From: an uncultured Desulfobacteraceae bacterium
GTDB taxonomy: Bacteria; Desulfobacterota; Desulfobacteria; Desulfobacterales; CAZWAE01
Length of the DNA: 64,000 bases
Reading direction: 5' to 3'
Assembly: GCA_964631805.1 (NCBI GenBank)
Contig: CAZWAE010000001.1
Coordinates: forward strand, 190-64,189
Shown: one piece after another, positions 25,816 through 58,179 of the stretch
Layout: each line of letters begins with the position of its first letter
Position numbering within the stretch: the stretch's first letter is position 1
Notes under the pieces: generated by a model
What the model was told of the DNA's origin: nothing
The model's input: the letters and a program-made list of their open reading frames with translations, nothing else
Databases searched by the model: none
Program-made: the position numbers and the translations under genes

Positions 25816-25890
25816 CCTGCTCACTGTTTACTGTTCACCGCTTACCTTGTATTTCCCCTGCTCACCGTTTACCGTTCTCTGCTCACCGTA
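25816..25890. repeat. degenerate heptamer tract (YGYTYAC)n
   Basis: tgctcac|tgtttac|tgttcac|cgcttac at 25818-25845. This 28-mer is identical to 46368-46395. Further ctgctcaccg units continue to 25890. Confidence 0.8.
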
Positions 25891-35500: not shown

Positions 35501-35509
35501 TTTTCCCAT
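32504..35509 (-). CDS. secreted FecR-domain protein with a giant Ala/Thr/Gln-rich repeat region, (PTDAPL)n and (TTA)n repeats
   Basis: Signal peptide plus a FecR domain (GDIVSYTGNVVVRS...RAEVRMVDGSEMRL...TPTMVAAIRGTDF). A low-complexity region of ~650 aa follows, with a 78-aa periodicity. Then come 7x PTDAPL + 2x PTDAPP, a TTA/TTV run, and the short tail TTPYTGHIDDDERLAVLMADELAGK. Confidence 0.8.
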   Translation of the reverse strand: MGKRILVYVIALSMIFPFHAFVYQTDANAQKDSGTSAKIGDIVSYTGNVVVRSKGKWGKLKKVPFPVYNSDKIVTTSGRAEVRMVDGSEMRLDVNANITLNQKREKRGLFSRGKVVSRRVDVLLGKIMFNIKRKKTGPKFNVRTPTMVAAIRGTDFPIEVTGDGSTSYDVIGDADVTGGQKITVPKDQQMKASDVAVPVSELPAGDPQVEKLPFQQAAQKALGTQTQATQLDNAAKDRAKKLNRKAPAHRAELAKTKAEAARTTASAGVTAAEAGVEEALRFNRKIEGKTISYRQNTLDSILAWLANAYSSLIATAYAQETNAQLAAAQAALNNAQSALQEANNRYQAVQEAARVATRSGVSTVAAQAAAAAAWAAAQAAAAQATVASAQANVAAASGNPDEAAAASAAAAQAATAASQATAAAQTAQQQVAVVEQAVATGNTAAADAAAAAAQAASSAAQANASAAEATTEVATAAATGQAEQAQAAQTAADAAINTATQAQTAADTASTQATTAATATGAAAEAAAAAAQASAAAAQANAATADANANVATAQAEGDTTAAAAAQTAANNAAQAATQAQTVAETANTQATTAATATGAAAEAAAAAAQASAAAAQANAATADANANVAAAQAEGNTAAAAAAQAAADNAATAATQAQTVAATADTQAQTAATATGAAADAAAAAAQASAAAAEATAATAEANSDVAFAQAAGNTEAAAAAQTAVAATQTAANQAQTAANTASNIATAAATAPTEAGAQAAAEAARAAAASAEANAAVADANSFAASAQAVGDTNTAQQATAAANTAATTAQQATQAADSANQLATQAATATNEADAQALADQVTQQADTAQQTAESTTNVITTNTEQIVQSTDLPPTDAPLPTDAPLPTDAPLPTDAPLPTDAPLPTDAPLPTDAPLPTDAPPPTDAPPPTATTATTATTATTATTATTATTVTTATTATTATTVTTTTTSAPTTTPYTGHIDDDERLAVLMADELAGK
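32600..32714. repeat. 9-bp coding tandem repeat (gttgtRgcY)n encoding (TTA/TTV)n
   Basis: About 12 consecutive 9-bp units seen directly, in frame within CDS 32504-35509. Confidence 0.85.
32715..32876. repeat. 18-bp coding tandem repeat x9 encoding PTDAPL/PTDAPP
   Basis: Nine units of ggcRgYggYgcatcYgtN counted from 32715 to 32876, in frame within the CDS. Confidence 0.9.
33000..34200. repeat. 234-bp (78-aa) coding tandem repeats, ~4-5 copies with decaying identity
   Basis: acgttggcgttggcatc recurs at 33624 and 33858 (234-bp offset). The protein unit is ATADANANVA..TATGAAAEAAAAAAQASAAAAQANA. Confidence 0.8.
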
Positions 35510-35875: not shown

Positions 35876-38125
35876 TCAGGAATTTGTTACCACCCACTGC
35901 AACACGCGCTTTTGAAGCGCCTCGTTCTCAGGCGGTACGATTCCCAGAATAACGGTATCATCCGGATAGTATTCCCGCACCCGTCTGGCAGCCTTTTTCC
36001 AGGATTCGGGCTTTAATCGGAGCGACCGTTGGAAAAGATCCTGGAATTTGCGGATCCCTTCCTGCCGGGTGCGGACACTCCCCCCTGTTTCACCTGCTGT
36101 TTCTGGTTCGGTTTCGGGCAACAGATGCGCCCGCCATACCCAGTACCATGCACTGCTCATCAACAAATCCGGTTTCATCGGCGCCCACCGAGCCGCCGCA
36201 TCGAAACAGCGGTCCGCCGCCGGAAGCCAGCGTTCCATATAGTGGTAGGGATCATAGGTTTTGTAAGATAACCGATAACCCAGGTCATGCCATACATTGG
36301 CCAAAGTGGGGTTGAGAGAAAGGGTGTGGCGGAAAGCGGAAATCGCCTGTTCATTGATACGGTGTCGCGCTGTTTCCCCGGCGGCACCCATGGCGGCATA
36401 GGTGAGCGCACGGCGGAGATGATTTTCCGCATTGCCGGGTGCATATGAAAGTGCTGTTTCAACCGCCTCAGGATCCGGGTTCCAGTTGAGATTCAGAGTG
36501 GAGTTCCATTCCGTGGGACTGTGGATCTCGGATATAAAATGTCGGCCGGTGGCAATGATGGCACCCCCCAAACCCAGTAAAACCACCGCCCCGGCAACGA
36601 TGCGAACCGGCATTGCAGGCCGGATGGTTCGTTTCGCATAAAAAAACCGCTCCAGGTATCCCTTTCGTTGACGATGTACGACCACAAATCCGACTCCCGA
36701 AAGGGCAGAGAGGGTCAACGGTGTGGCGGGGATGTGCATGTTTATATCCATAAAACCGTAAAACCCCATGGACAGGAGCGCGCCCATAACCCCTGCACCG
36801 ATGCCCATGGCAAAACGATCCGATCGAGACCGCCAAACCCGGAAAATACCGACCCAAATACCCACAAAAAGGCCGATGAAGATCAGCAGACCGGCTATCC
36901 CGGTATCACAGCCGGATTCGATCCAGTCGTTGTGAGCATGTCCGCTGGAACTCACCTTATCCTTTTGATCCGCCATGTATCGTGGATAAAGATACCGGAA
37001 ATTCCCGCCCCCTACGCCCAAAACCGGATATTCTCCGATCATTGGCAGGATTTCACGGACCGTCTCCCGCCGAACATCCGACCTATTTTCCCCCTTATCA
37101 GGTGATGCGTTATGTCCGATGCCCAGATACATCCCGAAGCCAAGCAACGTCAGGCAGAAAAGCACCGGCGCAACATGCCGCCATCGGAAATAACGATGAA
37201 AGCCCACGATTCCCACTCCGGCAAACAGCGCTGCGGTCATCGATAGGATGCCCTCACGGGACCCGGACAGAAAAATCGCTAAACCCATAAAAATGGCAGC
37301 AAACAAAAGTATCCTTGTCCCTGGGTCGGCCGCTTCAGGCGCAAACCAGGCAACCACCCGCTGCACCAGCACCCGGCGCCCCCCCAATCCGGACACCATT
37401 CGCTTTTGTTTGGGCTGCCGGGCCACCATGCACCCCAGTGTCAGCAAAAGGGCCATCAGCAGATACCCTGCATAATGATTGGGTGCAATATAGGTGCCCG
37501 TGGCCCGGCCGGAAAACCGTGCATGCACCCACCACCATACACGCGGGGAATCGCTGGCAAGCTGATAGAATCCATAAATCGATTCGAAAAAGCCGACGGC
37601 AACAAGGGTGTAGACCATGCCCATTATTCGCTTTTTTGACGTGACCGTATGGACCACCAGAAAAAACATCCCCGCGCAGGACAATAGCTTCAGCCCCATC
37701 AGACGGACCGGATACCGGTAATAGGCGATACTGGTCCAGGTCGGGGGCCCGGCGCCGACCCCGGCCCCGTCAAGGGCCTGGTGCATCATCAATTTATCGG
37801 CATATCCCTTGGGGGAAAGAAACGCCACCCATGAGGCGGGCAGCGGCATCCATTGTATTCCAAATAGCAGGATCAGTAGAATCACCGGCAAACTTACAGG
37901 CGTTTTTATCCAGACTACAAAACCGTCTTTGTTCAAAAAAAAACGGTCCAACACCCACGTCCCCAGGAGACTGAACACCAGCACCTGAATTACGGAATAG
38001 GCCCATACATGGACGGATCCAAAGGCCAGCGGCGCAAACAACAACAAAAACAGGAGGCCGGCGTAAATAATCCGGTCGCAGGTTTTGGCCGGCTGGTTCA
38101 GGGGGATGAATTGCGAATTTTTCAA
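35876..38125 (-). CDS. Wzy_C (O-antigen ligase/polymerase-like) membrane protein with C-terminal TPR domain, paralog 1
   Basis: 749 aa with ~12 TMs and a Wzy_C core (GSREGIL...PVLGVGGGNF...GHAHNDWIESGCDTGIAG). A C-terminal soluble TPR-like region of ~230 aa follows. Confidence 0.8.
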   Translation of the reverse strand: MKNSQFIPLNQPAKTCDRIIYAGLLFLLLFAPLAFGSVHVWAYSVIQVLVFSLLGTWVLDRFFLNKDGFVVWIKTPVSLPVILLILLFGIQWMPLPASWVAFLSPKGYADKLMMHQALDGAGVGAGPPTWTSIAYYRYPVRLMGLKLLSCAGMFFLVVHTVTSKKRIMGMVYTLVAVGFFESIYGFYQLASDSPRVWWWVHARFSGRATGTYIAPNHYAGYLLMALLLTLGCMVARQPKQKRMVSGLGGRRVLVQRVVAWFAPEAADPGTRILLFAAIFMGLAIFLSGSREGILSMTAALFAGVGIVGFHRYFRWRHVAPVLFCLTLLGFGMYLGIGHNASPDKGENRSDVRRETVREILPMIGEYPVLGVGGGNFRYLYPRYMADQKDKVSSSGHAHNDWIESGCDTGIAGLLIFIGLFVGIWVGIFRVWRSRSDRFAMGIGAGVMGALLSMGFYGFMDINMHIPATPLTLSALSGVGFVVVHRQRKGYLERFFYAKRTIRPAMPVRIVAGAVVLLGLGGAIIATGRHFISEIHSPTEWNSTLNLNWNPDPEAVETALSYAPGNAENHLRRALTYAAMGAAGETARHRINEQAISAFRHTLSLNPTLANVWHDLGYRLSYKTYDPYHYMERWLPAADRCFDAAARWAPMKPDLLMSSAWYWVWRAHLLPETEPETAGETGGSVRTRQEGIRKFQDLFQRSLRLKPESWKKAARRVREYYPDDTVILGIVPPENEALQKRVLQWVVTNS

Positions 38126-39221: not shown

Positions 39222-39375
39222 TCCGTTCACCGCTTTCAGTTTACTGTTTACTGCTCAATAGCTCATTAGCTTTTTAGCCTAAAGGCTGTTAGCAAAAACC
39301 TATACGCCTAAATGCCTTCAGCCTGATCAGCTAATTATTCCTGCTCACCGCTTTCAGTTTACTGTTTACTGCTCC
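39222..39375. repeat. heptamer tract interrupted by R-element copy B, flanked by a perfect 29-bp direct repeat
   Basis: caccgctttcagtttactgtttactgctc occurs at 39228-39256 and again at 39346-39374. The 89 bp between them contain the R copy (39271-39339). Confidence 0.85.
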
Positions 39376-41139
39376 TATTTTCAATATACTTCACAACTGC
39401 CCCCCTGAGCCCGATATTGCCTATCGGGAGGATACCAATGACAACCGATCGTTCCGGATAATAGTTCCAGATTTGATCCACAGCCAACATGACCTTTTTT
39501 TCTTCACTTTTAATCTCAAAAGAGGTCCTAAACAGCTTCTGGAACTTTGTGATCGCCGCCTTTCGATCCTCCACCACCTCGCTATGCGAACCGCTTTGGC
39601 CAGTTTCCGCAAAATGGGTCGACCGCCACACCCAGTACCAGGCGCTGTTGAACAAGATGCCCGGCCGTCTGGGCGCATACCGAACCGCCTGATCAAAACA
39701 CCGATCCCCACAGCGAAAGGGTCGCGGCGTCTATACCAGACGCGGAGCATCCGGGTTATAAAAAAAACCGTCCCGACCAGCACGAGAATAAACCCGGAGA
39801 CACCCAGTTCGGCACCCAGAGTGACCCAGTCGTTGTGCAGATTACCGCCAGTCAGCCGCCGAGCGAATTCAGGCGCCGGAGCCGGAGGGGCATATCGCGG
39901 ATATAAAGAGGGCAGCCCCCCCATGCCGACACCGGCGACCGGGTATTGGTAAACCATCGGCAGCGCTACCCGTGTTTCCAGCATCCTGTTGTCAAACTGA
40001 CGTTCTATGGACTGGAACTTGTTGAGGGTCCGATCGATACCGATATAGTATCCGTAGCCAAATATGACCAGGCAGACGGCCATAGTCCCCAATGCCTGCC
40101 GGCGATACTGCGCTTTCGCCATAAAGAGCAGACTCACCAGCAACATGGAGATGGAAGCTGCTAGAATGCCCCCCCTGGATCCGGACAGCAGCAGGGCGAT
40201 GCCGACGATGAGGGTAATGTAAAAAAAGAGCGCCACCCGGGAACGGCCAGATTCCGAGAGCGCGCGATGCAGCTTTTTCTTGAATCCCTGCTTTACTGTC
40301 GTTCGTTCAGAGCGGCTTCGGTCAACTTTCCCGCGAAGCGCCACCACATATCCCAAGCCCAGACTGGCGATCATCTCCATGTACCCGGCAAAATGATTGG
40401 ACCCTATAAATGTACCGCTGGCCCATGCGACCCGGCTGGGCCACCACCATACATTCGGCCTGGGGCTGAACACCTGGTAGATGGCATAAACCGCCTCGAA
40501 ACAGCCCACCAGCAGCAACACGGTCACCAGCATCTCTATCCGTTTATGGGTATTTGCTGAGTTTAGCACCAGAAAAAAGAGTGCCGCATAAGTGGCCATC
40601 TTGAGCCACTCGACACCTGTGGCATGGCGGTTGTATGTCAGGGGTATCCAGCCTGAAAAGGCCCGTTCCGGTTGGGTGTCCCGCGCCAAAAGTTCCATCA
40701 ACGGCGCTTTATCCGCAGCGGTTTCCGGAGACAGAAACGCCACCAGAGCAGGAGGCATGGGGATTGCCTGCAGCATCCCGATCAGCAAAAGAACAAGAAT
40801 GAACCCGCCTAAAGGCGTCCGCACCCATGACCATTCCACATGCTGACGTGAAAAAATCTTATCGAGCAGATACAATAGCCCCAACGAGAACACGCCGATT
40901 TGGACTACCGTATACGCCCATACGTGGCGCAAACCGAAGGCCAGCGGTGCGAACACCAGTAAAAGGATGATTCCCCCAAAAACGATCCGGTCAGGGGTTA
41001 GGAGGCCGGATCGAGACTTTTTGAGGGTCGTTTTTCGCCGTCTGTCGGCCAATAAAAAATCTTTGAAGGAAATGTGAGATGTAGCGGTGAGTCTGCTTAC
41101 AGCTAACCTGATCATTTTACCCCCGCTCACTCTCGACAA
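39359..41139 (-). pseudogene. Wzy_C-TPR paralog 2, disrupted by a ~589-bp internal deletion with frame change
   Basis: Roughly 85-95% DNA identity (by eye) to paralog 3 on both sides of a junction at 39699-39707 (caccgatcc). In paralog 3 the two matching 9-mers lie at 48861-48869 and 49450-49458. The C-terminal 98-aa ORF (39359-39655) is in a different frame from the 572-aa ORF (39421-41139). Confidence 0.75.
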
Positions 41140-41276: not shown

Positions 41277-41564
41277 GTGGTGGGAGAATATAAGATGCAT
41301 TCAAAAGATTATTTGTCAGCGACCTCGCTTTCCAAAAAAACATCTGCCACGTTAGATTCACTTGAAAAAGGAGAATCTGAAAAGCTGATCATTCTAAAAA
41401 ACAATTCACCCAAAGCGGTCCTTATGTCCATGGAAGCCTATGAGATCATGGAAGAAGAATTGGAAGATTTGAGACTGACCGCTCTTGCCATTTCACGCTT
41501 GCAGAGCTTCGATCCTGATAGCATGCTCACACATGAAGAATTGATGGCTAAGTTTGCCAAATGA
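41277..41564 (+). CDS. Phd/YefM-family antitoxin
   Basis: SATLDSLEKGESEKLIILKNNSPKAVLMSMEAYEIMEEELEDL is a typical Phd/YefM fold sequence. The probable start is the ATG at 41295, preceded by GGGAG. It overlaps the toxin gene by 4 nt. Confidence 0.85.
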   Translation: MVGEYKMHSKDYLSATSLSKKTSATLDSLEKGESEKLIILKNNSPKAVLMSMEAYEIMEEELEDLRLTALAISRLQSFDPDSMLTHEELMAKFAK

Positions 41565-41845
41565 CTTGGTCAATTTTATACCACCCGGATGTTGAGGATG
41601 ATCTAAAAAGCGTGGGTCCTTCCATGGCTCGCAGGATAATGCGATCCATCGACGCGAAACTCACCCAAGCTCCTTTACAGTTTGGCTCCCCACTATCCGG
41701 AAATCTGGGCAGCTTTCGTAAACTTCGGGTTGGTGACCACAGGGTCGTTTACCAAGTTCAGGGGAAAACGATCATTGTTTTTGTCCTGGCGGTCGGCGCT
41801 CGGAGAGACAAAGAAATCTATAGGTCTGCACTGAAAAGAAAATAG
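41561..41845 (+). CDS. RelE/ParE-family toxin
   Basis: 94 aa; LSGNLGSFRKLRVGDHRVVYQVQGKTIIVFVLAVGARRD is the canonical RelE/StbE core. Confidence 0.88.
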   Translation: MTWSILYHPDVEDDLKSVGPSMARRIMRSIDAKLTQAPLQFGSPLSGNLGSFRKLRVGDHRVVYQVQGKTIIVFVLAVGARRDKEIYRSALKRK

Positions 41846-42006
41846 CCCAGCGAAGCTACAATTCACCAGCTCAACAGCTATACAAAATGTGAACGGAAAG
41901 CAGTGAACTTAAAACAGGGAAATGGCCATTGTAAGCAGTAAGATGTGAACAGTGAAAAATATGTACATTTACGAATAATTTTTCTGTTTCCCCTGCTCAC
42001 TGCCGA
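41846..42006. repeat. heptamer tract in mixed orientation (GTRARCR units followed by ctgctcac units)
   Basis: gtgaacggaaagcagtgaac...gtaagcagtaagatgtgaacagtgaaaaa, then ...ctgtttcccctgctcactgccgactg. Confidence 0.65.
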
Positions 42007-42152
42007 CTGTTCACCGCTTACCCTTTTCCTTTTTTCACGCGAATTGATACTGCGGATAAGACCATTCAGCATCGCTGAAATGGTCCTACTTCTCTCCAAT
42101 AAATCTTGGGAACAACCATGATCCATGAACTCGAGTTCCCGTGCAATATAAT
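42007..42152 (-). pseudogene. 3' fragment of a four-helix-bundle (S23-IVS/Avd family) gene
   Basis: Minus-strand reading YIARELEFMDHGCSQDLLERSRTISAMLNGLIRSINSREKRKRVSGEQ aligns with the C-terminus of the intact copy at 46378-46758. The N-terminal two thirds are missing and the original stop is lost. Confidence 0.65.
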
Positions 42153-42335: not shown

Positions 42336-42602
42336 GTGCAAAACATGCAGCCAAACCCACGAACTAAAAAAGCCAGACTCAATATTCAAATCTCCTCTGA
42401 ACTTAAAAACAAACTTTATCAACTGTCCGCTAATCAAGGTAAAAAAGTCTCTGTCCTAGTTAGAGAATCCATTGAAGAAAAGCTGGAACAGATTAATAAA
42501 AAGATATTTGAGGAAAAAATGAAGTGCGCCTACCAAGGGTTGGCACAGGAAAACATGGAAGTTTCAGAAGATTTCAAATACGTTGATACCGAAAACCTTT
42601 AA
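42336..42602 (+). CDS. ribbon-helix-helix (CopG/MazE-like) antitoxin
   Basis: KKARLNIQISSELKNKLYQLSANQGKKVSVLVRESIEEKL is an RHH motif. The likely start is the ATG at 42345, 8 nt after AGGAGG. It lies directly upstream of the mazF-like gene. Confidence 0.75.
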   Translation: MQNMQPNPRTKKARLNIQISSELKNKLYQLSANQGKKVSVLVRESIEEKLEQINKKIFEEKMKCAYQGLAQENMEVSEDFKYVDTENL

Positions 42603-42614
42603 CGAGCGTAACGT

Positions 42615-42893
42615 ATGGCTAATATTCAAGTTAAACGAGCCGATATCCATTATGCGAACCTTGATCCGGTTGTGGGAAGAGAAACAGGAAAAACCCGGCC
42701 TGTGCTTGTGATTCAAAATGATATCGGCAACATGTACTCACCAACGACCATTGTAGCGGTGATTACTGAATATTCAGAAAAAAAGGCATCCTATCCCATC
42801 TGTGTGGCCATCAAAAAGGGAAATGGCCTCAAAAAAGACTCAATTGTTAATTTGTCCCAGATTAGAACTATTGATAAAAACCTATACGCCTAA
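42615..42893 (+). CDS. MazF/PemK-family endoribonuclease toxin, C-terminally truncated/replaced
   Basis: ADIHYANLDPVVGRETGKTRPVLVIQNDIGN...TIVAVIT...KDSIVNLSQIRTIDK is the MazF core. The last 5 codons and the stop (KNLYA*) are supplied by R-element copy C. About 20-25 C-terminal residues expected in the family are absent. Confidence 0.8.
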   Translation: MANIQVKRADIHYANLDPVVGRETGKTRPVLVIQNDIGNMYSPTTIVAVITEYSEKKASYPICVAIKKGNGLKKDSIVNLSQIRTIDKNLYA

Positions 42894-42932
42894 ATGCCTT
42901 CAGCCTGGTCAGCTAATTATTCCTGCTCACCG
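42876..42932. repeat. R-element copy C (5'-truncated)
   Basis: 57 nt identical to 39294-39350 except for one a/g difference. Confidence 0.9.
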
Positions 42933-43134
42933 GCGACCGCTCACCGCTTATCGATACTCCGTTTTCCCCCTGCTCACCGCCGCCTGTTAACTGTTTACCC
43001 CGTGAAATCTGTTTTCAAGTAGCTATTTCACCGGGGCCCACTTTATTTTCCACCTGCTCAACAGCTTACCAGCTCATCAGCCCAATAGCTTACCAGCTCA
43101 ACAGCTAATCTGCTTAACAGCTGTAATCTATTGA
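42933..43134. repeat. degenerate 7-8 nt periodic tract including 9 consecutive octamers (CAGCTYAN)
   Basis: ctgctcaa|cagcttac|cagctcat|cagcccaa|tagcttac|cagctcaa|cagctaat|ctgcttaa|cagctgta at 43054-43125. A hairpin lies at 42998-43036. Confidence 0.8.
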
Positions 43135-43500
43135 TTACAAAACACACTCCGTATCCCCAGGCATATACTCCGGAACAATCTCTTTGAATTTATCTCGTAT
43201 CCCACATCCATCCTGTTTTTCGGCCAACTGGTGCAATTCTTCGATCCCCTCAATCAACCATTTCTTATAGCTTTCCTGATCGCCGTACCCGTTAAAATTT
43301 TCCCCGGCACGAATCACCTTGATCTTTTCGTGTCCGGTTTCGACGATCCCTTCGCCCTCTGTGATCAATTCTTCATAAAGCTTCTCGCCGGGACGGAGGC
43401 CCGTGTAGACGATCTCGATGTCTCGATCAGGCTCCTTCCCGGACAGCCGGATCAGATCTTTGGCCATATCCACGATCTTTACCGGTGTGCCCATCTTCAA
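43135..43500 (-). pseudogene. CapD/WbpM-type polysaccharide biosynthesis protein, C-terminal fragment (copy 1, frame intact)
   Basis: MGTPVKIVDMAKDLIRLSGKEPDRDIEIVYTGLRPGEKLYEEL matches the C-terminal region of CapD/PglF-type 4,6-dehydratases. The ~500 N-terminal residues are absent, and homology ends where AT-rich DNA begins (~43505). Confidence 0.75.
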
Positions 43501-43512
43501 TATAATAGATCC

Positions 43513-43541
43513 TTGACATAAAAGAAAATGTGCCTCATAAT
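43513..43541 (+). promoter_or_regulatory. sigma70-like promoter of the DUF4258/YgiT cassette
   Basis: TTGACA (43513-43518), 17 nt, CATAAT (43536-43541), within an AT-rich block. Confidence 0.5.
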
Positions 43542-43805
43542 AATTATAAATATTTAATATCAGTAGTTTATATATTGAAATAGCATTGAGAAGGCACGTT
43601 GCCGAAAATCATCTGCCGTGAAGCTAACCGTCTCCCGAATCGCTTAGCTCGTGAGCCACTTGATTTTATACACTATCTCAATTTCAAACATACCCGCGGA
43701 GATTCATCGGTCGATCATTTACGTGCTACCCCAAAAGCCGGTGATGGACCCAATTTGGGACAACTCCGATGACGATGCTTGGAATGACCTGCAAACCTCG
43801 TAATC

Positions 43806-44135
43806 TTGATGAATCAGCGATTGTCAGAATATTTAGCAGCACCTCTTGATGAATGGACTATCGAATATCGTGTTCATGCAACCCAACGTATGTTCAAACG
43901 TCGTATCGATGAGAAAGACGTCATGCAATTGCTTGCCAAGGGAACAATTATCGAGGAATATAAGGACGATTTCCCTTTCCCGAGTGTATTGGTAAACGGT
44001 GTATCAGGCGATAACAGGCCATTACATGCTGTTTTGGGGATTGATGACAATCTTTCCCGGCTTTATCTGATCACCATCTATGAACCCGACTCCAATAAAT
44101 GGGCGGAAAATTACAATAAGAGGCTATCGCCATGA
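43806..44135 (+). CDS. DUF4258-domain protein (putative toxin)
   Basis: 109 aa; YRVHATQRMFKRRIDEKDVMQLLAKGTIIEEY...LHAVLGIDDNLSRLYLITIYEP is the DUF4258 pattern. The likely start is the ATG at 43809. It overlaps the next gene by 4 nt. Confidence 0.75.
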   Translation: MMNQRLSEYLAAPLDEWTIEYRVHATQRMFKRRIDEKDVMQLLAKGTIIEEYKDDFPFPSVLVNGVSGDNRPLHAVLGIDDNLSRLYLITIYEPDSNKWAENYNKRLSP

Positions 44136-44356
44136 AATGTGCAATCTGCCGGAATGGGCACACAGTAAAGGGGCATATCACGGTGGTTCTTGAAAGAGAA
44201 CAATCCACTCTTGTGTTTAAAAAAGTTCCCGCAAAGATCTGCGAAAACTGTGGTGAGGAATACTTATCCGAAGAGATCAATCGGAAACTTTTAGAAAGGG
44301 CCCGGGAAGCAGTCGAAAGAGGTGTAGATCTGGAGCTGTTACGATTTGCGGCCTAA
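44132..44356 (+). CDS. YgiT-type zinc-finger protein (MqsA N-terminal-like, putative antitoxin)
   Basis: MKCAICRNG...KICENCGEEYLSEE carries the CxxC...CxxC zinc ribbon of the YgiT/MqsA family. Confidence 0.8.
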   Translation: MKCAICRNGHTVKGHITVVLEREQSTLVFKKVPAKICENCGEEYLSEEINRKLLERAREAVERGVDLELLRFAA

Positions 44357-44470
44357 TTCACCTACACCTTTGTCCAGCTTGGATATTTTGGTGCGGATTT
44401 TCGCCTTGTCGGATTGAAAAGATACATGGACTGCCCATCCGTATATTTCACAAATTGATACGAATTCTTA

Positions 44471-44636
44471 GGCTCCGCTCTCCCGTCCTCACCTTCTCAT
44501 GCACTTCCCGCTCTCACGCTCTTACGCCTCATGCTTTCTCGCTCTCCCACCTCACGCCCTTCCCGCTCTCACGCCTAACGTTCTCACGCTTACGATTCCC
44601 CTGCTCACTGACACCTGCTTACAGCTCACCTCGTCG
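44471..44636. repeat. degenerate 7-8 nt periodic tract (CGCTCTYA/CGCCTCA units)
   Basis: cgctctca|cgctctta|cgcctca|tgctttct|cgctctcc|cacctca|cgcccttc|ccgctctca|cgcctaa|cgttctca|cgcttac...ctgctcactg. Confidence 0.75.
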
Positions 44637-44946
44637 TTACAACACACACTCCGTATCCCCAGGCTGATATTCCGGTACCATCTCCTTGAACTTCTCACGA
44701 ATACCGCAACCATCCTGTTCATCCGCCAATAGGTAAAGCTCATCGATTTCTGCCATCAGCCATTTCTTGAAGCTTTCCTGATCGCCGTGTCCATTAAATT
44801 TTCCCGACACGGATTATCTTGATTTTTTCATGACCGGTTGTAAAGATCCCCTCCCCCTCTGTAATCAACTCCTCTTATAGCTTTTCTCCCGGACGCAGGC
44901 CGGTATAAACAATATCTATATCCCTATCCGGCTCCTTTCTGGACAG
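44637..44946 (-). pseudogene. CapD-like C-terminal fragment, copy 2 (nonsense + frameshift)
   Basis: The minus strand reads LSRKEPDRDIDIVYTGLRPGEKL*EELITEGEGIFTTGHEKIKIIRVGK. After a 1-nt deletion it continues NGHGDQESFKKWL...GCGIREKFKEMVPEYQPGDTECVL*. Confidence 0.7.
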
Positions 44947-45136
44947 GTCTACCCCGTCAATATATGATTCCTGATGAGGATTATTCATTTCCGTGACCCT
45001 AAAATCCTGCCGGTCAGTGTCTTTTTGAAATAGAAGGCGATTCATGTGGCCAGCGATAAAATATCAATTGACATAATTACCATAATAATGTTAATTATGA
45101 TTAACACTTTCCCACTCATAGCAGAAAGTATACTTT

Positions 45137-46351
45137 ATGGAATATTGGTTTTCCGAACAAACGGCAAGGCTTCGGTCTCTTCCTGAAACCAGGCGCTACC
45201 TTTATCATGATATCGATTGGTCCGGTCGCTGTGTCGGCCTTTTGGGCGCCCGCGGTACGGGAAAAACCACCCTGATGTTGCAATACCTTCTCGAAAACTT
45301 CCCTGGATCTGACAAAACCCTTTACGTTTCCGTGGATCATCCCAAATTTCAAGCCCTATCCCTTTATGAATTCGGTCGTGAATTTTCTCAATACGGCGGA
45401 AAGATCCTTTTTCTGGACGAAGTTCATAAATATGACCGGTGGGCAAGCCATATCAAAACCTTGTATGATTCATGCCCTGATCTGCGGATTATCTTTTCCG
45501 GATCGAGCTTGCTGCAGTTGCAGGTTCAAGATACCGATTTGAGCCGTCGCGCGGTATTCTACCACCTGCACGGTCTATCCCTGAGGGAATTTTTATTTTT
45601 CCAGCAAAACATTGTCTTTCCCGTCATTGATTTCAACGATCTGATCGAGAATCATATATCCCATTCACAGCAAATCTGTCGGAAAATAAAACCTCTTGAA
45701 CATTTTCGTAATTACTTACGATATGGCTATTATCCGTATTTCACAGAGGGCATAGATGTCTATCCCATGAAACTCAATGAAGTTATCAAACAAGTGCTGG
45801 AAACGGATCTGCCTTTTGTCGGACATGTGGATACCCGACAAATCTCAAAACTGAAAAAGCTAATATATCTTTTAGCGATCAATGTCCCTTCTCAGGTCAA
45901 TATTCAAAAGCTTTCGGCAAGTACAGAAATATCCAGGCCCAAGGTCTATGAATATTTGGAATATCTCAAAAAGGCGCGTCTACTTCATTTAATCAGGGGA
46001 GGAGAAACAGGCTATAAAATCCTATCCAAGCCTGATAAGATTTTTCTGGAGAATCCCAATTTGGCCCATGCATTGGCAGATACAGTCAATACAGGTACGA
46101 TCAGAGAAACCTTTTTCGTCAATCAAGTAACCAATGCGTTTGACCGTTATCCATCTTTGGCCAAAAGTTCAATTACGACCGCACGGCACGGTGATTTTAC
46201 AGTACTGGAGCAATTTAGTTTTGAGATCGGCGGTCGGACCAAGGGAGCCAGGCAAATCAGGGGGATTGACAATGCTTTTATTGCCTCGGACGATTTGGAG
46301 ACCGGATTTTCCCATAAAATCCCGCTGTGGCTATTTGGATTTCTCTACTAA
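45137..46351 (+). CDS. AAA+ ATPase, AAA_14/DUF4143 family (COG1373-like)
   Basis: 404 aa with Walker A GARGTGKTT, Walker B ILFLDEVH and a C-terminal DUF4143-like region. Confidence 0.85.
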   Translation: MEYWFSEQTARLRSLPETRRYLYHDIDWSGRCVGLLGARGTGKTTLMLQYLLENFPGSDKTLYVSVDHPKFQALSLYEFGREFSQYGGKILFLDEVHKYDRWASHIKTLYDSCPDLRIIFSGSSLLQLQVQDTDLSRRAVFYHLHGLSLREFLFFQQNIVFPVIDFNDLIENHISHSQQICRKIKPLEHFRNYLRYGYYPYFTEGIDVYPMKLNEVIKQVLETDLPFVGHVDTRQISKLKKLIYLLAINVPSQVNIQKLSASTEISRPKVYEYLEYLKKARLLHLIRGGETGYKILSKPDKIFLENPNLAHALADTVNTGTIRETFFVNQVTNAFDRYPSLAKSSITTARHGDFTVLEQFSFEIGGRTKGARQIRGIDNAFIASDDLETGFSHKIPLWLFGFLY

Positions 46352-46377
46352 CCGGTTTTCTGCGACCTGCTCACTGT

Positions 46378-46758
46378 TTACTGTTCACCGCTTACTCTTT
46401 TCCTTTTTCCACGCGAATTGATACTGCGGATAAGACCAATCAGCATCGCTGAAATGGCCCTGCTCCTCTCCAATAAGTCTGTGAAAAAATCCTGATCAAT
46501 ATATTCCAGTTCTTTTGCAATATAAAGCTGCGTTCTTAGTTCCCCGCATGACCCTTTCGCAATATTCAGGAAGCGGATAAAATCCCGGGGGCTGTTCCGC
46601 TCATATCCCTCGGCAATGTTCGAGGGAACTGACACAGCAGCACGACATATCTGATCCTTAAATCCATAGTCCCGACATTCTTTGAAAACTCCATAGATAT
46701 CAACTGCCAACCGACATCCTCTCTTCCACACCTCCAATCCCTCAAACCCCTCCGACAT
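46378..46758 (-). CDS. four-helix-bundle protein (23S rRNA intervening-sequence / Avd family)
   Basis: LEVWKRGCRLAVDIYGVF...RAAVSVPSNIAEGYERNSPRDFIRFLNIAKGSCGELRTQLYIAKEL is the TIGR02436-type signature. The ORF is open to 46794, but M13 (46758) gives the family-typical N-terminus. Confidence 0.85.
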   Translation of the reverse strand: MSEGFEGLEVWKRGCRLAVDIYGVFKECRDYGFKDQICRAAVSVPSNIAEGYERNSPRDFIRFLNIAKGSCGELRTQLYIAKELEYIDQDFFTDLLERSRAISAMLIGLIRSINSRGKRKRVSGEQ

Positions 46759-46794
46759 TTCACATTCCCTTCCCGCTCCCAGCCTCCAGCTCAC

Positions 46795-46876
46795 CGCTCA
46801 CTTTCCAATCCCCCGCTTACTGTCCACTTCCTTCATTCCCCTGCTCACTGCCCCCCGCTTACAGCTCACATCGTCG
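46795..46876. repeat. degenerate heptamer tract
   Basis: ctcaccgctcactttccaatcccccgcttactgtccac...ctgctcactgccccccgcttacagctcac. The last ~45 nt are shared with 44594-44636. Confidence 0.7.
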
Positions 46877-47062
46877 TTACAACACACACTTCGTATACCC
46901 AGGCATATATTCCGGAACAATTTCTTTGAATTTATCTCGTATCCCACACCCATCTTGTTTACTCGCTAACCTATAGAAGTCCTCGATTCCAGCGAACAGC
47001 AACTTCCTGAAGGTTTCCTGATCCCCGTGTCCGTTGAAATGGTCACCGGTCCGGAAGATCTC
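46877..47062 (-). pseudogene. CapD-like C-terminal fragment, copy 3 (shortest)
   Basis: The minus strand reads EIFRTGDHFNGHGDQETFRKLLFAGIEDFYRLASKQDGCGIRDKFKEIVPEYMPGYTKCVL*, collinear with the last ~60 residues of copy 1. Confidence 0.65.
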
Positions 47063-47184: not shown

Positions 47185-48348
47185 ATGTACAAAAGAATCC
47201 TCTGTTTGCCTGAAACGCCTCGAAAGAGCTTTTTCCTTTGGGGCCCCCGTCAAACGGGAAAAACCACTCTGCTGAAATCGCATTATCCTGATGCTTTCCG
47301 AATCGACCTGCTTAAAACCGATGAATTGGTGCGCTACGCGAAGAATCCATCCCGTCTGCGGGAAGAGGTTACAGCGCTTTCAGCTGAAACATTGATCGTA
47401 ATCGACGAAATTCAGAAAGCCCCCGCTCTCCTGGACGAAATTCATTACATGATTCAGGAGAAACGAAGTGTTTTCGCAATGTGCGGCTCGAGTGCAAGAA
47501 AAGTTAGACACGGCCACGCAAACCTGTTGGGCGGACGCGCCATGCGATACGAACTGTTTGGGCTGGTTTCGGAAGAGCTTGCCGAAGACTTTTCCATTGG
47601 TCATTTCGTCAACACGGGTCCGCTTCCTGAACACTACGGGGCCGAATCCCCCCACCTGGCGCTCCGCTCCTATGTTGAGGATTATCTGCGCGAAGAAATT
47701 CTGCAGAAGGGTCTGACACGCCGGTTGCCTTTGTTTTCCGACTTTCTCCGAGTGGCAGCTATCGGAGACACAGAAACGGTGAACATGTCCAACATCGCCC
47801 GGGAGACGGGAATCGCGGTCTCAACGGTCCGGGATCATTTTGGAATACTGGTAGATACCCTGATCGGTGCGTTTCTTCCGGCTTTTACGTTGCGTCCCAA
47901 ACGCCGCACTATCCAGGCCCCCAAATTTTATTTCAGGGATCTGGGAGTGGTTAACCATCTGGCAAGACGAGGTATCGTCAGGCCTGGTTCTGAGCTATTC
48001 GGAAAAGCCTTTGAAAACTGGCTGTTTCACGAGATCTCCGCTCATACTCGATACAGCGAATTGTTTTATGATATTTCGCACTGGCGGCTTTCCAGCGGTA
48101 TTGAAGTTGACTTCATTCTGGGCCCCGGTGCCATCGCCATCGAGGCAAAAGGCAAGCATCGCATTACCACCAGCGACACAAAGGGGCTTCTTAATTTCAA
48201 AAAAGATTTCCCTTCGGTCAAGCAACTGCTCATCCTCAGTCTTGAGGAACGGCCACGGCTCACTAAAGATGGCGTCCACATCCTGCCTCACAGGAAATTC
48301 GCCAAATCTCTTTGGCAGGGAAAATGGAATTCAGATCTTGCTCAGTAG
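47185..48348 (+). CDS. AAA+ ATPase, AAA_14/DUF4143 family (second, divergent)
   Basis: 387 aa with Walker A GPRQTGKTT, Walker B LIVIDEIQ and a C-terminal DUF4143-like region. Confidence 0.85.
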   Translation: MYKRILCLPETPRKSFFLWGPRQTGKTTLLKSHYPDAFRIDLLKTDELVRYAKNPSRLREEVTALSAETLIVIDEIQKAPALLDEIHYMIQEKRSVFAMCGSSARKVRHGHANLLGGRAMRYELFGLVSEELAEDFSIGHFVNTGPLPEHYGAESPHLALRSYVEDYLREEILQKGLTRRLPLFSDFLRVAAIGDTETVNMSNIARETGIAVSTVRDHFGILVDTLIGAFLPAFTLRPKRRTIQAPKFYFRDLGVVNHLARRGIVRPGSELFGKAFENWLFHEISAHTRYSELFYDISHWRLSSGIEVDFILGPGAIAIEAKGKHRITTSDTKGLLNFKKDFPSVKQLLILSLEERPRLTKDGVHILPHRKFAKSLWQGKWNSDLAQ

Positions 48349-48351
48349 TTC

Positions 48352-48526
48352 ACAAGCTTTACCAGATCCCTGCCCCCCCCATTCACTTCTCACCAGCTTA
48401 TCAGTTCAATAACTCAGTAGCTCTTTTCCTGCTCGCTACCTGCCCAGCAAAATTTATCCTGTGAAACCTTTTTGTCGCTGTTTCTCTGGAACCCGTTTTT
48501 GTCATTGTTTCACCGGGGCTCACTAC
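48352..48526. repeat. degenerate periodic tract plus hairpin downstream of Wzy_C-TPR paralog 3
   Basis: ttcacttctcaccagcttatcagttcaataactcagtagctc..., with the hairpin cctgtgaaac...gtttcaccgggg at 48458-48518. Confidence 0.65.
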
Positions 48527-50881
48527 TCACATCTTTTTATTTTTTATATACTTCTCCACCTCATCCTTAAGCCCATCATGCCCCGCCGGCAAAATGCCCA
48601 GTACCGCAGATCTGTTCGGATAATAGTTCCAGATTTGATCCACGGCTGTGAGCACCTTTTTTTTATCTGTTTTAATCTCAAAAGAGTTCCGGAACAATTC
48701 CTGGAACTTTATGATCGCCGCCTTATTGCTTGCCACAACCCCACTCCGATGTTTGTCCTTATTTGTTTCGGAAAAGTGCGTCGACCGCCAAACCCAGTAC
48801 CAGGCTGCATTGTACAAAATGCCCGGTCTTCTTGGCGCACAGCGCACCGCCTGCTCAAGACACCGGTCCGCCGCCGGCAGCCAATTTGTAGAATGGTTTT
48901 CTGAATCGTAGTTTTTATAGGAATAACGGTACCCCAAATCATGCCAATAATTGGCCTCCGCCGGATTGCAGCGCAGCGCATTTTCAAGGCTTTCAATGAC
49001 ATGCTCGTTGATTTCCCGGCGTTGTTTCTCATCAGCAGCGGGAGTTTTCATGTAGTGGAGGGCCTTCTTGTGATGGTATTTGGCGTTGAAAGGATTCAAC
49101 CTGATGGCCGCCTCGATATCAGGAAGGTCCGGGTCATAGTTCAGGTTCAGGGTAGAATTCCACTCTGTGGCGCAATGGGCTTCAGCCAGGAAGTGTCTGA
49201 CGGAGGCAGTCATCAGGAGGCAGTAAACTGGAATAATCAATACCGTCAAAATTAGGCGGCGCAAAGGCGTCAACCGAACACGCCTTACCCGGTACATGAA
49301 TCGTTCGCGACGCCCCTTTCGGTACCGGTGAACCGCTGAGTACCCGATAGCGGCAATGGCGGCAAGGGTCATCGGATTGGCCGGGACCCGCATATTGAGT
49401 TCAACATAGCTGTGAATGCCGATGGAGATAATACCGGCCACCGCGCCCGCACCGATCCCCACGGCGAAAGGGTCGCGGCGTCTATACCAGACGCGGAGCA
49501 TCCGGATTATAAAAAAAACCGTTCCGACCAGCACGAGAATCAACCCCATGATACCGAGTTCTGCCCCCAATGTAACCCAGTCATTGTGTAAATATCCGGC
49601 TCCTAATTCATTAAATAGGGCCGTTGGCGCATAGCGGGTGTATAACGATGGCAGCACCCCCATCCCCAAACCGGTAAACGGATAATCGTATATCATTGGG
49701 GCAGCCACCAGTGTTTCCATCATCCTCTTTTCAAATTGTCCCTCTATCATTTTGAATTTAGCTAAGGTTCGATCAATACCAGTGCTATACCCATAGGCAA
49801 AAATGATAAGGCAAATGGCCGACGCCATTACAGCCTTCTTACGATAACGCTGTTTTGTTATAAAAATTAGGCATACTAGTAGCATTGTGACCAAAGCCGC
49901 CAGAATCCCCCCCCTTGAGGCAGACTGGAGTAAAGCAACGCCAACAGTTACGGAAATATACAAAAAAAGGGCCAACTGGATAAATGAGGTATTTGACAAA
50001 TACTGATACAGTTTTTTCTTAATCCCTTCGACAGATGTCGAATGTTCAGGTAGGATTTGTGACGCTTTCTCACGCAGGGCTACAAGGTAACCAAATCCAA
50101 GAAAAACGATCAATTCCATGTAACCGGCGAAATGATTGGATCCAATAAAGGTTCCGCTAGCCCATCCCTCAACTCCGATTCGACTCGGCCACCACCACAC
50201 ATACGGTCTGGGACTGAACACCTGGTAAATGGCATAGACCGCCTCGAAACAGCCCACCATCAGCAGGGCAACTACCAGCACCTCCATTCGTTTTCTAGTA
50301 TTGGCCGTATTGAGCACTAAAAAAAACAGTGCCGTATAAGTGGCCATCTTGAGCCATTCGATACCTGTGGCATGCTGGTTGTATGTCAGGGGTATCCAGT
50401 CTGAAAATAACCGGTCCGGATGGGTATCCCGCGCCAGGAGTTCCAAAAGCGGCGCTTTATCCGTAGCGGTTTCCGGAGACAAAAACGCAACCAGCTCCAT
50501 CGGTAGGGGAACGGTCTGAAGTATCCCAATCAGTAAAAAAGCAAGAATGAACCCGTCGAGAGGCGTCCGCGCCCATGACCATTCCATCTGCTGTCGTGAT
50601 AAAATTTTGTCCAGCAGATACAACAACCCCAACGAGAACACGCCGATTTGAACTAACGTATACGCCCACACGTGGCTCAAACCGAAGGCCAGCGGTGCAA
50701 ATACAAGCAAAGCAATTATACCGCCAATAACAATCCGGTCGACAGTCACCTGCCCGGGCTTGGAGGTCTTGATTTTTTTACGGTGTTTGGAAATCGAAGA
50801 AAATCCAGAAAAATAGAGGACAATAAGCAATATAGAGCGTTTAAACGCATCTACGGGGAGGAGGTATTGGACCGGCGTCAA
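48527..50881 (-). CDS. Wzy_C (O-antigen ligase/polymerase-like) membrane protein with C-terminal TPR domain, paralog 3 (intact)
   Basis: 784 aa with the same architecture as 35876-38125 (SASRGGIL...GLGMGVL...GYLHNDWVTLGAELG) and a TPR-like C-terminus. High DNA identity to pseudogene 39359-41139. Confidence 0.8.
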   Translation of the reverse strand: MTPVQYLLPVDAFKRSILLIVLYFSGFSSISKHRKKIKTSKPGQVTVDRIVIGGIIALLVFAPLAFGLSHVWAYTLVQIGVFSLGLLYLLDKILSRQQMEWSWARTPLDGFILAFLLIGILQTVPLPMELVAFLSPETATDKAPLLELLARDTHPDRLFSDWIPLTYNQHATGIEWLKMATYTALFFLVLNTANTRKRMEVLVVALLMVGCFEAVYAIYQVFSPRPYVWWWPSRIGVEGWASGTFIGSNHFAGYMELIVFLGFGYLVALREKASQILPEHSTSVEGIKKKLYQYLSNTSFIQLALFLYISVTVGVALLQSASRGGILAALVTMLLVCLIFITKQRYRKKAVMASAICLIIFAYGYSTGIDRTLAKFKMIEGQFEKRMMETLVAAPMIYDYPFTGLGMGVLPSLYTRYAPTALFNELGAGYLHNDWVTLGAELGIMGLILVLVGTVFFIIRMLRVWYRRRDPFAVGIGAGAVAGIISIGIHSYVELNMRVPANPMTLAAIAAIGYSAVHRYRKGRRERFMYRVRRVRLTPLRRLILTVLIIPVYCLLMTASVRHFLAEAHCATEWNSTLNLNYDPDLPDIEAAIRLNPFNAKYHHKKALHYMKTPAADEKQRREINEHVIESLENALRCNPAEANYWHDLGYRYSYKNYDSENHSTNWLPAADRCLEQAVRCAPRRPGILYNAAWYWVWRSTHFSETNKDKHRSGVVASNKAAIIKFQELFRNSFEIKTDKKKVLTAVDQIWNYYPNRSAVLGILPAGHDGLKDEVEKYIKNKKM

Positions 50882-56622: not shown

Positions 56623-58179
56623 CTAGGCAGGCAGGGTTTCTCGAATGGCCTTATTCCTTTCAGTCCGGGAAAGCCGTAGGGCGACATGGGATAGGCTAAA
56701 GTAAAGAAACATCCAGATATCCAAGCCATACTCGCTGTTGGCCAGGTACTGAACGGAGACACCACAGAAGGTTGACAGGATGATATTCGCGTAAATGAAC
56801 AATCTGAGGTTATGACCTCTCTTGGAAATTGATCTTGCCTTCATCAGATTTTTAATTGAAGCAATGTATAGAACCGTAATTGCGAAAAAACCGATCACAC
56901 CATTATCGATTAGCCATGACACATAAAAGCTGTGAACCGATGAATACAGTCTTGAATAGACGCCCACAGCGTACACACCCAGGATCTCTTTTGAAGAACC
57001 CAGACCATAACCAAATATGGGATTTTCGAAAAAGGGCTCGACGAGTAGTACCCAACGACCGATTCTGAGCCTCAAGCTACTGCCGCCATAGGGATGGTTG
57101 TGGGTCCTGGCTGAACTTGTAAAATGATCGATCAAACCGAATTGTTCAACGGCGATGACAATTGCTAAAAAAACCGCCAGACAGAGCAAAAGGATCCTAG
57201 TTTTTCTTTGAGCCAACATATCCCTGCTGATGGACAACAGACAGAATACGATCAATGCACAAGCAACACCAACATAAACCGCCCGAGTATACGTCAACAA
57301 AATGGCCGTGATCAGGAAAGCCGATATAAGAAACGCGGTAAGCACCTTTTTACCCTTCTCAACAAGTAGGAATGAAAGAACAAGGCACAAAGCCGGCATA
57401 ATTCTTTCAGCGGTAGCTCCAGCAGAATGTCCGGTTGCCGCAGTCAAGCGCCTTTCATAAAAATAAAACAGCTCTTGGTTGGGGGTGATCAAGACAAGGC
57501 CGTAATACTGCAGAAAACCCTGTACCGCCAGACAAATGCCAATGACGATCAGGGTCCAGAAAAAGATGGTTAGCTTTCTTTCGGAGTTGACCAGCCAAAC
57601 AACCAGAATGGATATCAATATACCATTGAAAAAGAAAAAATAGGGCTCACGCTGAACCCTCCCGAATCCTGACATTACCTTCGGATTGAAGAACATTTCA
57701 TAATCGAGCACTCGGGGCAGGCTCGAAATAAAGACAGCCGAAACCATAATAAAAAGGACGACTTTGAACGAGATGGACAACTCCTGCGTCATGGGACCAG
57801 AAAATGGCTCCCTTTTGATTCGGTTTTTATAATACACCGAGAAAAATATCAGCGCCAAAATCAGCGTATACGAAGACTGGAGCATACTGCCGTACTTGAA
57901 AAGACCTATAGGCAGGAGGTGCCTCGCCAGGTAAAATACCAAAATCCCGTAAAAGGGGTTCTTTATGATCACTGTGAACATGAAAAACGCAACGAGTGGG
58001 AAAATGGGAATGGCGACGCTATATACCATTTTCCCTGCCTGCATACAGTATATCAATACAATGACCGAAAAAATAACAAATAGAAAACCAATAGCCGGAA
58101 AGGCATTCCCGCTCATGCGATTTGACCCGACATTCTGCATATGAATGGATTTAACTCCGTCTGATCTTGAAATAAGCAT
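56623..58179 (-). CDS. O-antigen polymerase/ligase-like polytopic membrane protein (Wzy type)
   Basis: 518 aa with ~12 TMs and a Wzy_C-like loop (TYTRAVYVG...NPIFGYGLGSS...SVHSFYVSWLIDNGVIG). No TPR tail. Confidence 0.7.
   Translation of the reverse strand: MLISRSDGVKSIHMQNVGSNRMSGNAFPAIGFLFVIFSVIVLIYCMQAGKMVYSVAIPIFPLVAFFMFTVIIKNPFYGILVFYLARHLLPIGLFKYGSMLQSSYTLILALIFFSVYYKNRIKREPFSGPMTQELSISFKVVLFIMVSAVFISSLPRVLDYEMFFNPKVMSGFGRVQREPYFFFFNGILISILVVWLVNSERKLTIFFWTLIVIGICLAVQGFLQYYGLVLITPNQELFYFYERRLTAATGHSAGATAERIMPALCLVLSFLLVEKGKKVLTAFLISAFLITAILLTYTRAVYVGVACALIVFCLLSISRDMLAQRKTRILLLCLAVFLAIVIAVEQFGLIDHFTSSARTHNHPYGGSSLRLRIGRWVLLVEPFFENPIFGYGLGSSKEILGVYAVGVYSRLYSSVHSFYVSWLIDNGVIGFFAITVLYIASIKNLMKARSISKRGHNLRLFIYANIILSTFCGVSVQYLANSEYGLDIWMFLYFSLSHVALRLSRTERNKAIRETLPA

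Follow-up and report, generated by a model that had tools for sequence, protein, structure and literature searches.

Why should the 3′ end of one polysaccharide biosynthesis gene occur three times over, each time next to a different set of unrelated small genes, within a single exopolysaccharide (EPS) locus? The question is raised by a stretch of 64,000 nt from an uncultured Desulfobacteraceae bacterium (GenBank assembly GCA_964631805.1, contig CAZWAE010000001.1, positions 190 to 64,189), referred to below as the window, in which an earlier note made from the sequence alone had recognized three CapD-like gene ends between 43 and 47 kb. We found that these repeats are the 3′ ends of different, formerly functional alleles of a capD/wbpM-type gene. 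The reading that we favor, with a probability of roughly 0.55, is that the array is the fossil of serial 3′-end displacement at capD by homologous or homology-facilitated recombination.

The three gene ends (capD′ hereafter) belong to the Polysacc_synt_2 family (CapD/WbpM/PglF) and are direct repeats, all on the minus strand. When the window was compared with itself by blastn, copies 1 and 2 were 77% identical over 312 nt (E 4e-62), copies 2 and 3 were 79% identical over 204 nt (E 1e-43) and copies 1 and 3 were 78% identical over 173 nt (E 8e-34). Positions within the gene are given as residues (q) of a full-length 677-aa CapD relative that served as the tblastn query. Copy 1 (43135–43506) is an intact open reading frame (ORF) comprising the last 121 codons and the stop: it matches q555–677 at 67% and covers positions 228–291 of the 293 of the Pfam family (PF02719, E 6e-17), and its homology to full-length CapD begins, as read from the sequence, about 10–12 nt upstream of the ATG of MGTPVKI. 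Copy 2 (44637–44997, with secure homology over 44637–44946) matches q556–620 and q623–677. It carries one TAA stop, the TAT-to-TAA change of the earlier note, together with a net 2-nt deletion relative to copy 1 instead of the 1-nt deletion counted there. A weak, heavily diverged remnant (GGAAATG..CCT) may extend this copy to about 44990–45000 (about 44997), and its breakpoint would then fall in the region of copy 1's. Copy 3 (46877–47062) retains the last ~60 codons according to blastn, tblastn and alignment alike. The C-terminal peptides of the three copies are PEYMPGDTECVL, PEYQPGDTECVL and PEYMPGYTKCVL, and copies 2 and 3 have about 45 nt beyond the stop codon in common (87–93% identity).

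No part of the capD body accompanies these ends: with the 677-aa relative as query, tblastn found only residues 555–677 in the window, even at E ≤ 10. The fragments accordingly lack the features of a complete enzyme, namely the membrane/linker N-terminus, the NAD-binding TGxGGSIG motif and the catalytic portion of a short-chain dehydrogenase fold. The three gene ends, their common tail peptides, the stretch shared by copies 2 and 3 past the stop and the missing 5′ body had all been reported in the earlier note, and all held up. It had also named an assembly artefact, by collapse or expansion of repeats, as a possible source of the pattern. This can be ruled out: a 14–20 kb stretch is present without gaps, at 99.99–100% identity, in five assemblies from different samples, and copies that are merely 77–79% alike are too different for such a collapse or expansion.

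The origin of the copies can be read from the way their differences are distributed. Between copies 1 and 2, the differences amount to 0.12, 0.07 and 0.50 at codon positions 1, 2 and 3, respectively, with a dN/dS of 0.04; the ratio is 0.14 for copies 1 and 3 and 0.15 for copies 2 and 3, all of these being rough estimates since dS is saturated (>1) and the compared sequences short. Had the copies decayed where they lie, all codon positions should have changed to a similar extent, whereas here divergence is piled up at third positions: most of it therefore predates orphaning, was acquired under purifying selection inside functional genes, and the copies were assembled side by side later. Each copy thus stems from the 3′ end of a different capD allele that was once functional, not from duplication in place, and the earlier description of the copies as "progressively decayed" is misleading. 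The single stop and the frameshift of copy 2 are recent relative to this divergence. Copy 3 is in addition a mosaic: its own 5′ part is followed by 60 nt that are 93–97% like copy 1, and then by an end that is 87–93% like copy 2, up to and including the 45 nt past the stop. Such mosaicism indicates homologous exchange between copies or between alleles.

In a neighbor-joining tree of about 110 C-terminal sequences, the copies group by genome and are interspersed among full-length genes. The proposal that the fragments form one mobile lineage of common descent is therefore unsupported. Along capD itself, nucleotide identity is even over the distal core (0.65–0.75 for q490–620) and falls in a step at q620 to 0.41–0.50 in a variable tail, the last ~58 codons; displacement of a gene tip requires just this combination of an even core and a variable tail behind it.

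The array lies in a chromosomal stretch that contains arginine biosynthesis genes, hslUV with a XerC-like recombinase gene and, from about 22.6 kb, a large EPS locus (CpsB, a Wzz/tyrosine-kinase gene, Poly_export, glycosyltransferases and several Wzy_C genes) running on the minus strand nearly throughout. It occupies a 7.4-kb patchwork bounded upstream by an intact Wzy_C gene (O-antigen ligase/polymerase-like; 48527–50881, minus strand), with a degenerate hairpin and a tract behind its stop (48362–48520), and downstream by a frameshifted Wzy_C paralog (39359–41139, minus strand) that is split into ORFs of 572 and 98 aa and matches the intact copy in two blastn segments (74% and 72% nucleotide identity). 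Read in the sense of the minus strand, the order is DUF4143b (opposite strand), copy 3, a tract, a four-helix-bundle (4HB) gene, DUF4143a (opposite strand), copy 2, a tract, an MqsA-like/DUF4258 pair (opposite strand), copy 1, a tract–hairpin–tract spacer, a MazF/RHH pair (opposite strand), a 3′ fragment of a second 4HB gene and a ParE/Phd pair (opposite strand).

Each capD′ copy is followed by a low-complexity tract of 8-nt units and by a convergent cargo cassette. The spacer downstream of copy 1 (42894–43134) consists of nine degenerate 8-nt units (43052–43121), a hairpin (42998–43036; CCCCGGTGAAAT-N16-ATTTCACGGGG) and more GCTCAC/GCTTAC units; downstream of copy 2, the tract (44455–44636) comprises about 14 CGCTCTCA-like units; and a third tract spans the interval from the stop of copy 3 to the 4HB gene (46795–46876, or about 46770–46876). 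As for the cargo, the AAA_14/DUF4143 ATPases a (45137–46351, plus strand) and b (47185–48348, plus strand; its upstream region abuts copy 3) were identified by Pfam and match the PADLOC defense candidate PDC-S01 (E 3e-29 for ATPase a); they are just 26% identical to each other, and the neighboring cargoes are unrelated. The 4HB gene (46378–46794, minus strand), of the 23S_rRNA_IVP family (PF05635, E 2e-36), lies directly downstream of copy 3. A DUF4258 gene and an MqsA-like zinc-ribbon gene (43806–44356, plus strand; Pfam) form a putative toxin–antitoxin (TA) pair that is convergent to copy 2 and whose upstream region abuts copy 1. Further along come an RHH antitoxin with a MazF/PemK toxin (42336–42893, plus strand), and a Phd/YefM antitoxin with a ParE toxin (41277–41845, plus strand; Pfam). 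The Pfam match of MazF ends at position 84 of 109, so that this toxin may be truncated; its 3′ end enters a repeated intergenic element described below. The fragment of the second 4HB gene (41995–42126, minus strand) abuts the RHH/MazF cassette and resembles the intact gene (85% over 160 nt to 46366–46525, 90% over 36 codons). It repeats the capD′ pattern: a 3′ fragment set against a cassette.

Comparable stacks, in which capD fragments alternate with cargo, are present in other Desulfobacterota metagenome contigs (related loci and contigs bear L-numbers). Type II TA cargo lies between capD fragments in L009, L062, L012/L064, L112 and L122. L009 reads TA, capD′, small ORFs, capD′, Y1 transposase and EPS genes; L062 has a DUF433/DUF5615 pair between two capD′; in L012 and L064, a Y1 transposase fragment is fused to capD′, which in L064 is followed by 4HB and MqsRA genes; L112 reads PIN, short capD′, DUF7718/DUF5647 and capD′; and L122 has BrnT beside capD′. 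In L077, an intact capD is followed by a small helix-turn-helix gene and then by a decayed capD′ with about 80–84% protein identity to the resident end. Cargo of the kinds seen in the window also lies directly downstream of intact capD genes: L018 has a convergent VapBC pair and a 72% (aa) ortholog of DUF4143b, itself convergent to capD, and L060 has a tract and then a 4HB gene. The order capD–4HB thus recurs in L060 and L064, and a pair homologous to DUF4258/MqsA-like occurs in L054 (58–74% aa identity). More generally, TA, 4HB and DUF4143 genes are scattered through the EPS loci of relatives.

The nearest named relatives of the copies are full-length capD genes of Desulfobacteraceae/Desulfobacterales metagenome-assembled genomes, with 510–600 codons upstream of the matched part, 57–71% identity and the same tail. 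That all the best database hits were short proteins had at one point been taken as the sign of a widespread family of fragments, an argument that we dropped: some of these hits are full-length genes split by frameshifts in long-read assemblies (L006, L008, L011), full-length relatives of equal identity exist in DNA collections, and the candidate step of the protein search may favor short proteins. As a separate observation, Y1 (IS200-like, HUH) transposase genes or N-terminal fragments of them lie beside capD fragments in two unrelated lineages (L012 2016–2201 and L064 391–576; L009 3380–4303), the transposase fragment being joined directly at the capD breakpoint in L012 and L064.

No dedicated recombination machinery was found that could account for the array. 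Neither an integrase nor a transposase was found in or near it, serine recombinases and DDE transposases not having been searched systematically; the sole tyrosine recombinase gene of the window is the XerC-like one beside hslUV (10442–11377), 30 kb away, and a phmmer search over the ORFs of 134 related loci detected tyrosine recombinases only in L088, which is unrelated. The att-like cores that the earlier note had suggested looking for at the three breakpoints did not turn up: no 11-mer is common to the three copies and no sequence is conserved at the breakpoints, the longest pairwise exact matches among the copies (20–26 nt) lying near the stop codon rather than at the 5′ breakpoints. No shared motif was seen on the cargo side of the junctions either. 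The window contains no intI gene, and its only conserved hairpin (42998–43036) is 39 nt long and, judged by eye, of the wrong polarity for an attC R″/R′ pair. There were no relatives on viral contigs that would point to carriage by phages, and no tRNA genes in the window that could have been alternative targets. The presence of an Avd-like 4HB gene also led to the copies being considered as template and variable repeats of a diversity-generating retroelement; this was rejected as the mismatches are not adenine-specific (G19 A19 C17 T14 for copy 1), and the annotated ORFs of the window yielded no reverse transcriptase.

A string of ends that each keep part of a conserved core and a tip, come from other alleles, are separated by small genes and have no recombinase nearby is the architecture known from rhs loci and from type VI secretion system (T6SS) clusters, and it is on this match that we read the array as the fossil of the same process. 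For rhs C-terminal displacement, homologous recombination with small circular intermediates has been proposed (Jackson et al. 2009, PMC2935791), and for the arrays of orphan immunity genes in the T6SS clusters of Vibrio cholerae, homology-facilitated illegitimate recombination (Kirchberger et al. 2017, PMC5361080). The repeats themselves are gene ends of the capD/wbpM type that have been orphaned ("dissociated tips"), and they lie in the variable part of the EPS locus of a Desulfobacteraceae-like bacterium. On several occasions, a block of DNA would have recombined into the locus through its capD homology. Every such block would have carried the conserved distal portion of capD with the variable tail of its C-terminus, then a low-complexity tract and, convergent to these, an addiction or defense cassette. 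Either a small circular intermediate would have integrated through a single crossover, or the route would have been homology-facilitated illegitimate recombination; each event would have pushed the earlier 3′ end downstream without replacing it. Two properties may explain why the stack persisted: an identity of 77–79% should lower recombination between the repeats, and the TA and candidate defense genes between them would, we infer, stabilize the array because their loss is punished. The master capD body would since have been lost, leaving an array without capD function; copy 3 is cut short next to the DUF4143b cassette. The earlier note had proposed that each incoming element supplies a surrogate 3′ end, as islands do. 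Its first half agrees with the low dN/dS (0.04), each block having brought an end of its own; the analogy with integrase-borne islands fails, there being no integrase, no att core and no intact target. The alternative it mentioned, recombination among EPS loci, fits the evidence better and matches the process known for rhs, contact-dependent growth inhibition (CDI) as well as T6SS loci.

Several observations weigh against serial displacement. No intact capD is attached to the array or present elsewhere in the window, so that displacement of the end of a working gene is not directly visible here. Preservation is best in the copy that lies farthest downstream (copy 1), and truncation is greatest in the one farthest upstream (copy 3), which is the reverse of the order predicted by simple serial displacement with age-dependent decay. 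Arrays are also uncommon, since 0 of 40 representative genome loci contained an extra capD fragment, and the roughness of the selection estimates adds to these reservations. Furthermore, capD fragments exist outside EPS loci, between panB and tRNA-Arg(CCT) (L134 9849–10258, L137 5668–6177), where a VapBC cassette fills the panB/tRNA-Arg gap in L137 and is absent from L134, the indel lying between the fragment's VPEY codons on one side and the tRNA gene's 3′ end on the other; a fragment can therefore move or survive where capD is not the target. Finally, a process of the rhs type predicts variable core lengths, whereas 5′ breakpoints fall at q545–566 (about 22 codons) in about eight lineages with unrelated flanks: copy 1 (perhaps copy 2), L009, L012/L064, L062b, L077b, L112b, the wetland group L115/116/123/131 and L122a. 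This cluster does not coincide with a peak of nucleotide conservation, the profile being flat over q490–620, nor is it a pile-up caused by failure to detect shorter fragments, as a self-search with each locus's own tail gave just two of these. About a dozen lineages suffice to suggest such clustering, not to prove it; a site-specific or Chi-like entry point is possible.

Were the clustering real, it could be accommodated by a rather unlikely, more far-reaching version of the recombination scenario, in which an integrase-free cassette system of Desulfobacterota uses the capD 3′ end as its recombination handle: small units, each consisting of such a capD′ handle with a low-complexity tract and a TA or defense gene, would circulate between genomes, host recombination would insert them at capD or at handles that had arrived before, and addiction would keep them there. 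If entry were favored near the GGEIFILDMG codons, perhaps at a Chi-like or nicking site, the location of the breakpoints would be explained. The same clustering, together with the scarcity of shorter tail-only fragments in the self-search (two, hence no detection pile-up), could instead indicate site-specific integrative elements that accreted in tandem at a fixed capD site near these codons, with an integrase acting in trans, each supplying a surrogate 3′ end of ~120 codons and leaving the fragments as attR-type remnants. L077, with its intact gene and downstream fragment, and the Y1 (IS200-like) transposase genes or fragments that adjoin capD′ in L009 and L012/L064 would suit this explanation. 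We nevertheless consider it decidedly unlikely, as the breakpoints are spread over ~60 nt and not fixed to one nucleotide, copy 3 and the 4HB fragment break elsewhere, no integrase is found in or near any array except in the unrelated L088, the junctions have no cargo-side motif and the window copies no common 11-mer, and relatives are missing from viral contigs.

It is also conceivable, if rather doubtful, that the region is a junkyard between paralogous Wzy_C genes, built by unrelated illegitimate joins, in which the capD ends are mere flanks of the cargo and had no role in its integration. Scraps do abound nearby (the 4HB fragment, the frameshifted Wzy_C paralog and three ~110-nt intergenic elements, one of them over the 3′ end of mazF), capD fragments occur beside a tRNA gene outside EPS loci, and TA, 4HB and DUF4143 genes are dispersed in the EPS loci of relatives. 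Against passive debris, however, the window has the end of this one gene in triplicate and other lineages have it time and again, in every case as a 3′ end, and the mosaic copy 3 shows that homologous exchange acted on the copies. It is highly improbable that one capD 3′ end was duplicated locally in tandem, the duplicates then decaying where they lay and their cargo being exchanged: the three copies do cluster in the tree of ~110 C-terminal sequences, and the closest protein to copy 2 among 5.8 billion is copy 1, but this clustering may reflect a lack of close database relatives, the cargoes are unrelated, and neutral decay of a pseudogene would not give divergence at third positions with dN/dS of 0.04–0.15 and dS > 1. 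There is likewise little chance that the fragments (or at least copy 1, which is intact) work as small genes, encoding a protein of 119–121 aa that starts at the conserved Met of MGTPVKI and is under selection. Intact ORFs are indeed found for copy 1, both L009 fragments, L012, L062b and L137, several of them starting from the same Met; about half of the fragments, however, are broken (copy 2, L077b, L112b, L122, L134 and the wetland group), the Met lacks a convincing ribosome-binding site upstream, and such a protein would be devoid of the NAD-binding part and of most of the Pfam domain (positions 228–291 of 293 remain).

Some of the repeated sequences around the array are of interest in themselves. 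Degenerate tandem tracts of 7–8-nt units follow the stops of capD and of other EPS genes (43052–43121, 44455–44636, 46770–46876, 48362–48440, 41849–42023, 25770–25867 and 39227–39374); the unit in the window is GCTCAC/GCTTAC-like on the plus strand (40 hexamer hits, versus 10 on the minus strand). Relatives have tracts at the equivalent position (L014, L054, L055, L060, L012, L016, L018), with a unit specific to each genome (ATACTGGG, GGTTTTG, GAACATCG, CACAGAG and CACGAAG, for example). A hairpin conserved in sequence (CCCCGGTGAAAY-N12-16-RTTTCACGGGG) is found near capD or capD′ in different Desulfobacterales contigs: at 42998–43036 in the window, with a degenerate copy at ~48470–48518, and at L012 3046, L015 7838–7895, L058 939 and L062 3569. 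It has no Rfam match (no Rfam family was detected at all between 39 and 49 kb) and no T-run behind it, and could be a protein-binding or recombination site. An intergenic element of ~110 nt occurs three times (25732–25867, 39256–39369 and 42876–42979), with 98% identity over 57 nt between 39294–39350 and 42876–42932; the third copy overlaps the last MazF codons.

Other genes of the window show duplication as well. The EPS locus contains four Wzy_C genes (35876–38125, 39359–41139, 48527–50881 and 56623–58179), of which one has a frameshift. Those on either side of the array are paralogs that have diverged from each other (dS > 1, dN/dS 0.17–0.27), which suggests that EPS alleles have been patched together throughout the locus. 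Outside it, a CHASE2-adenylate/guanylate cyclase gene is present as tandem paralogs (17249–20066 and 20083–22482, 76% identity over 1 kb), the downstream one of which, in two overlapping ORFs (CHASE2 18075–20066, cyclase 17249–18091), is probably a frameshifted pseudogene. Within the EPS locus, a 1001-aa ORF without Pfam match (32504–35509) has long internal repeats (among them a 234-nt unit present about three times, and arrays of 9 and 18 nt), whose translations are all Gly/Ala-rich.

If serial displacement did build the array, 3′-end displacement reaches beyond polymorphic toxin genes, and bacteria can stack foreign modules in this way without a dedicated recombinase. The route would act at a conserved housekeeping gene of surface-polysaccharide loci and build islets of TA and candidate defense genes there; it would provide a concrete path for the spread of such genes in uncultured relatives of sulfate reducers, and would help explain why the polysaccharide loci of these bacteria are peppered with them. 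For annotation, the recurrent short "FlaA1/EpsC-like epimerase" ORFs would find an explanation as orphaned gene ends. A capD stack with TA and defense cargo that recurs in Desulfobacterota appears to be undescribed in the literature searched; the novelty that the earlier note had claimed is thus plausible for the locus, while the principle is known from toxin loci.

How the array relates to known systems can now be stated. TA cargo is thought to protect the cassette arrays of chromosomal integrons from deletion. Like those arrays, the capD stack is composed of small cassettes, many of them TA pairs, separated by a repeated sequence; the repeat, however, is a gene fragment of 190–370 nt and not an attC hairpin, the cassettes are oriented opposite to it, and intI is lacking. 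Tandem islands at the 3′ ends of tRNA or other genes, such as the tycheposon islands (bioRxiv 10.1101/2020.12.28.424599), resemble it in that stacked cargo lies between partial copies of the target's 3′ end; those islands use integrases and have defined att cores, neither of which was found here.

The resemblance to the T6SS clusters of V. cholerae (PMC5361080) extends to the process: there, successive horizontally acquired modules displace the old effector, downstream genes that are harmful to lose are kept, 3′ remnants are shifted back and no integrase is involved. The genes retained in those clusters protect against the toxins of kin, whereas here they are addiction and defense modules unrelated to capD function. 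The rhs loci (PMC2935791) and the orphan cdiA-CT/cdiI modules of CDI systems differ from the array in the nature of the gene, which is here a nucleotide-sugar dehydratase of polysaccharide synthesis, with its tail as the tip, and no polymorphic toxin; the neighbors are not cognate immunity genes but independent TA pairs, 4HB and DUF4143 genes, mostly on the opposite strand. Moreover, the copies in the window are 77–79% identical, while rhs core fragments are nearly identical to their master gene, and the master gene is missing from the window, an intact head gene being found only in the related contig L077. What they share with the array is a string of 3′ fragments in a single orientation, each with part of a conserved core and a variable tip, with small genes in between; in both cases the fragments came in from other alleles and did not arise by local duplication, a dedicated recombinase is lacking, and the proposed mechanism is homologous recombination with circular intermediates that shunts the old tip downstream.

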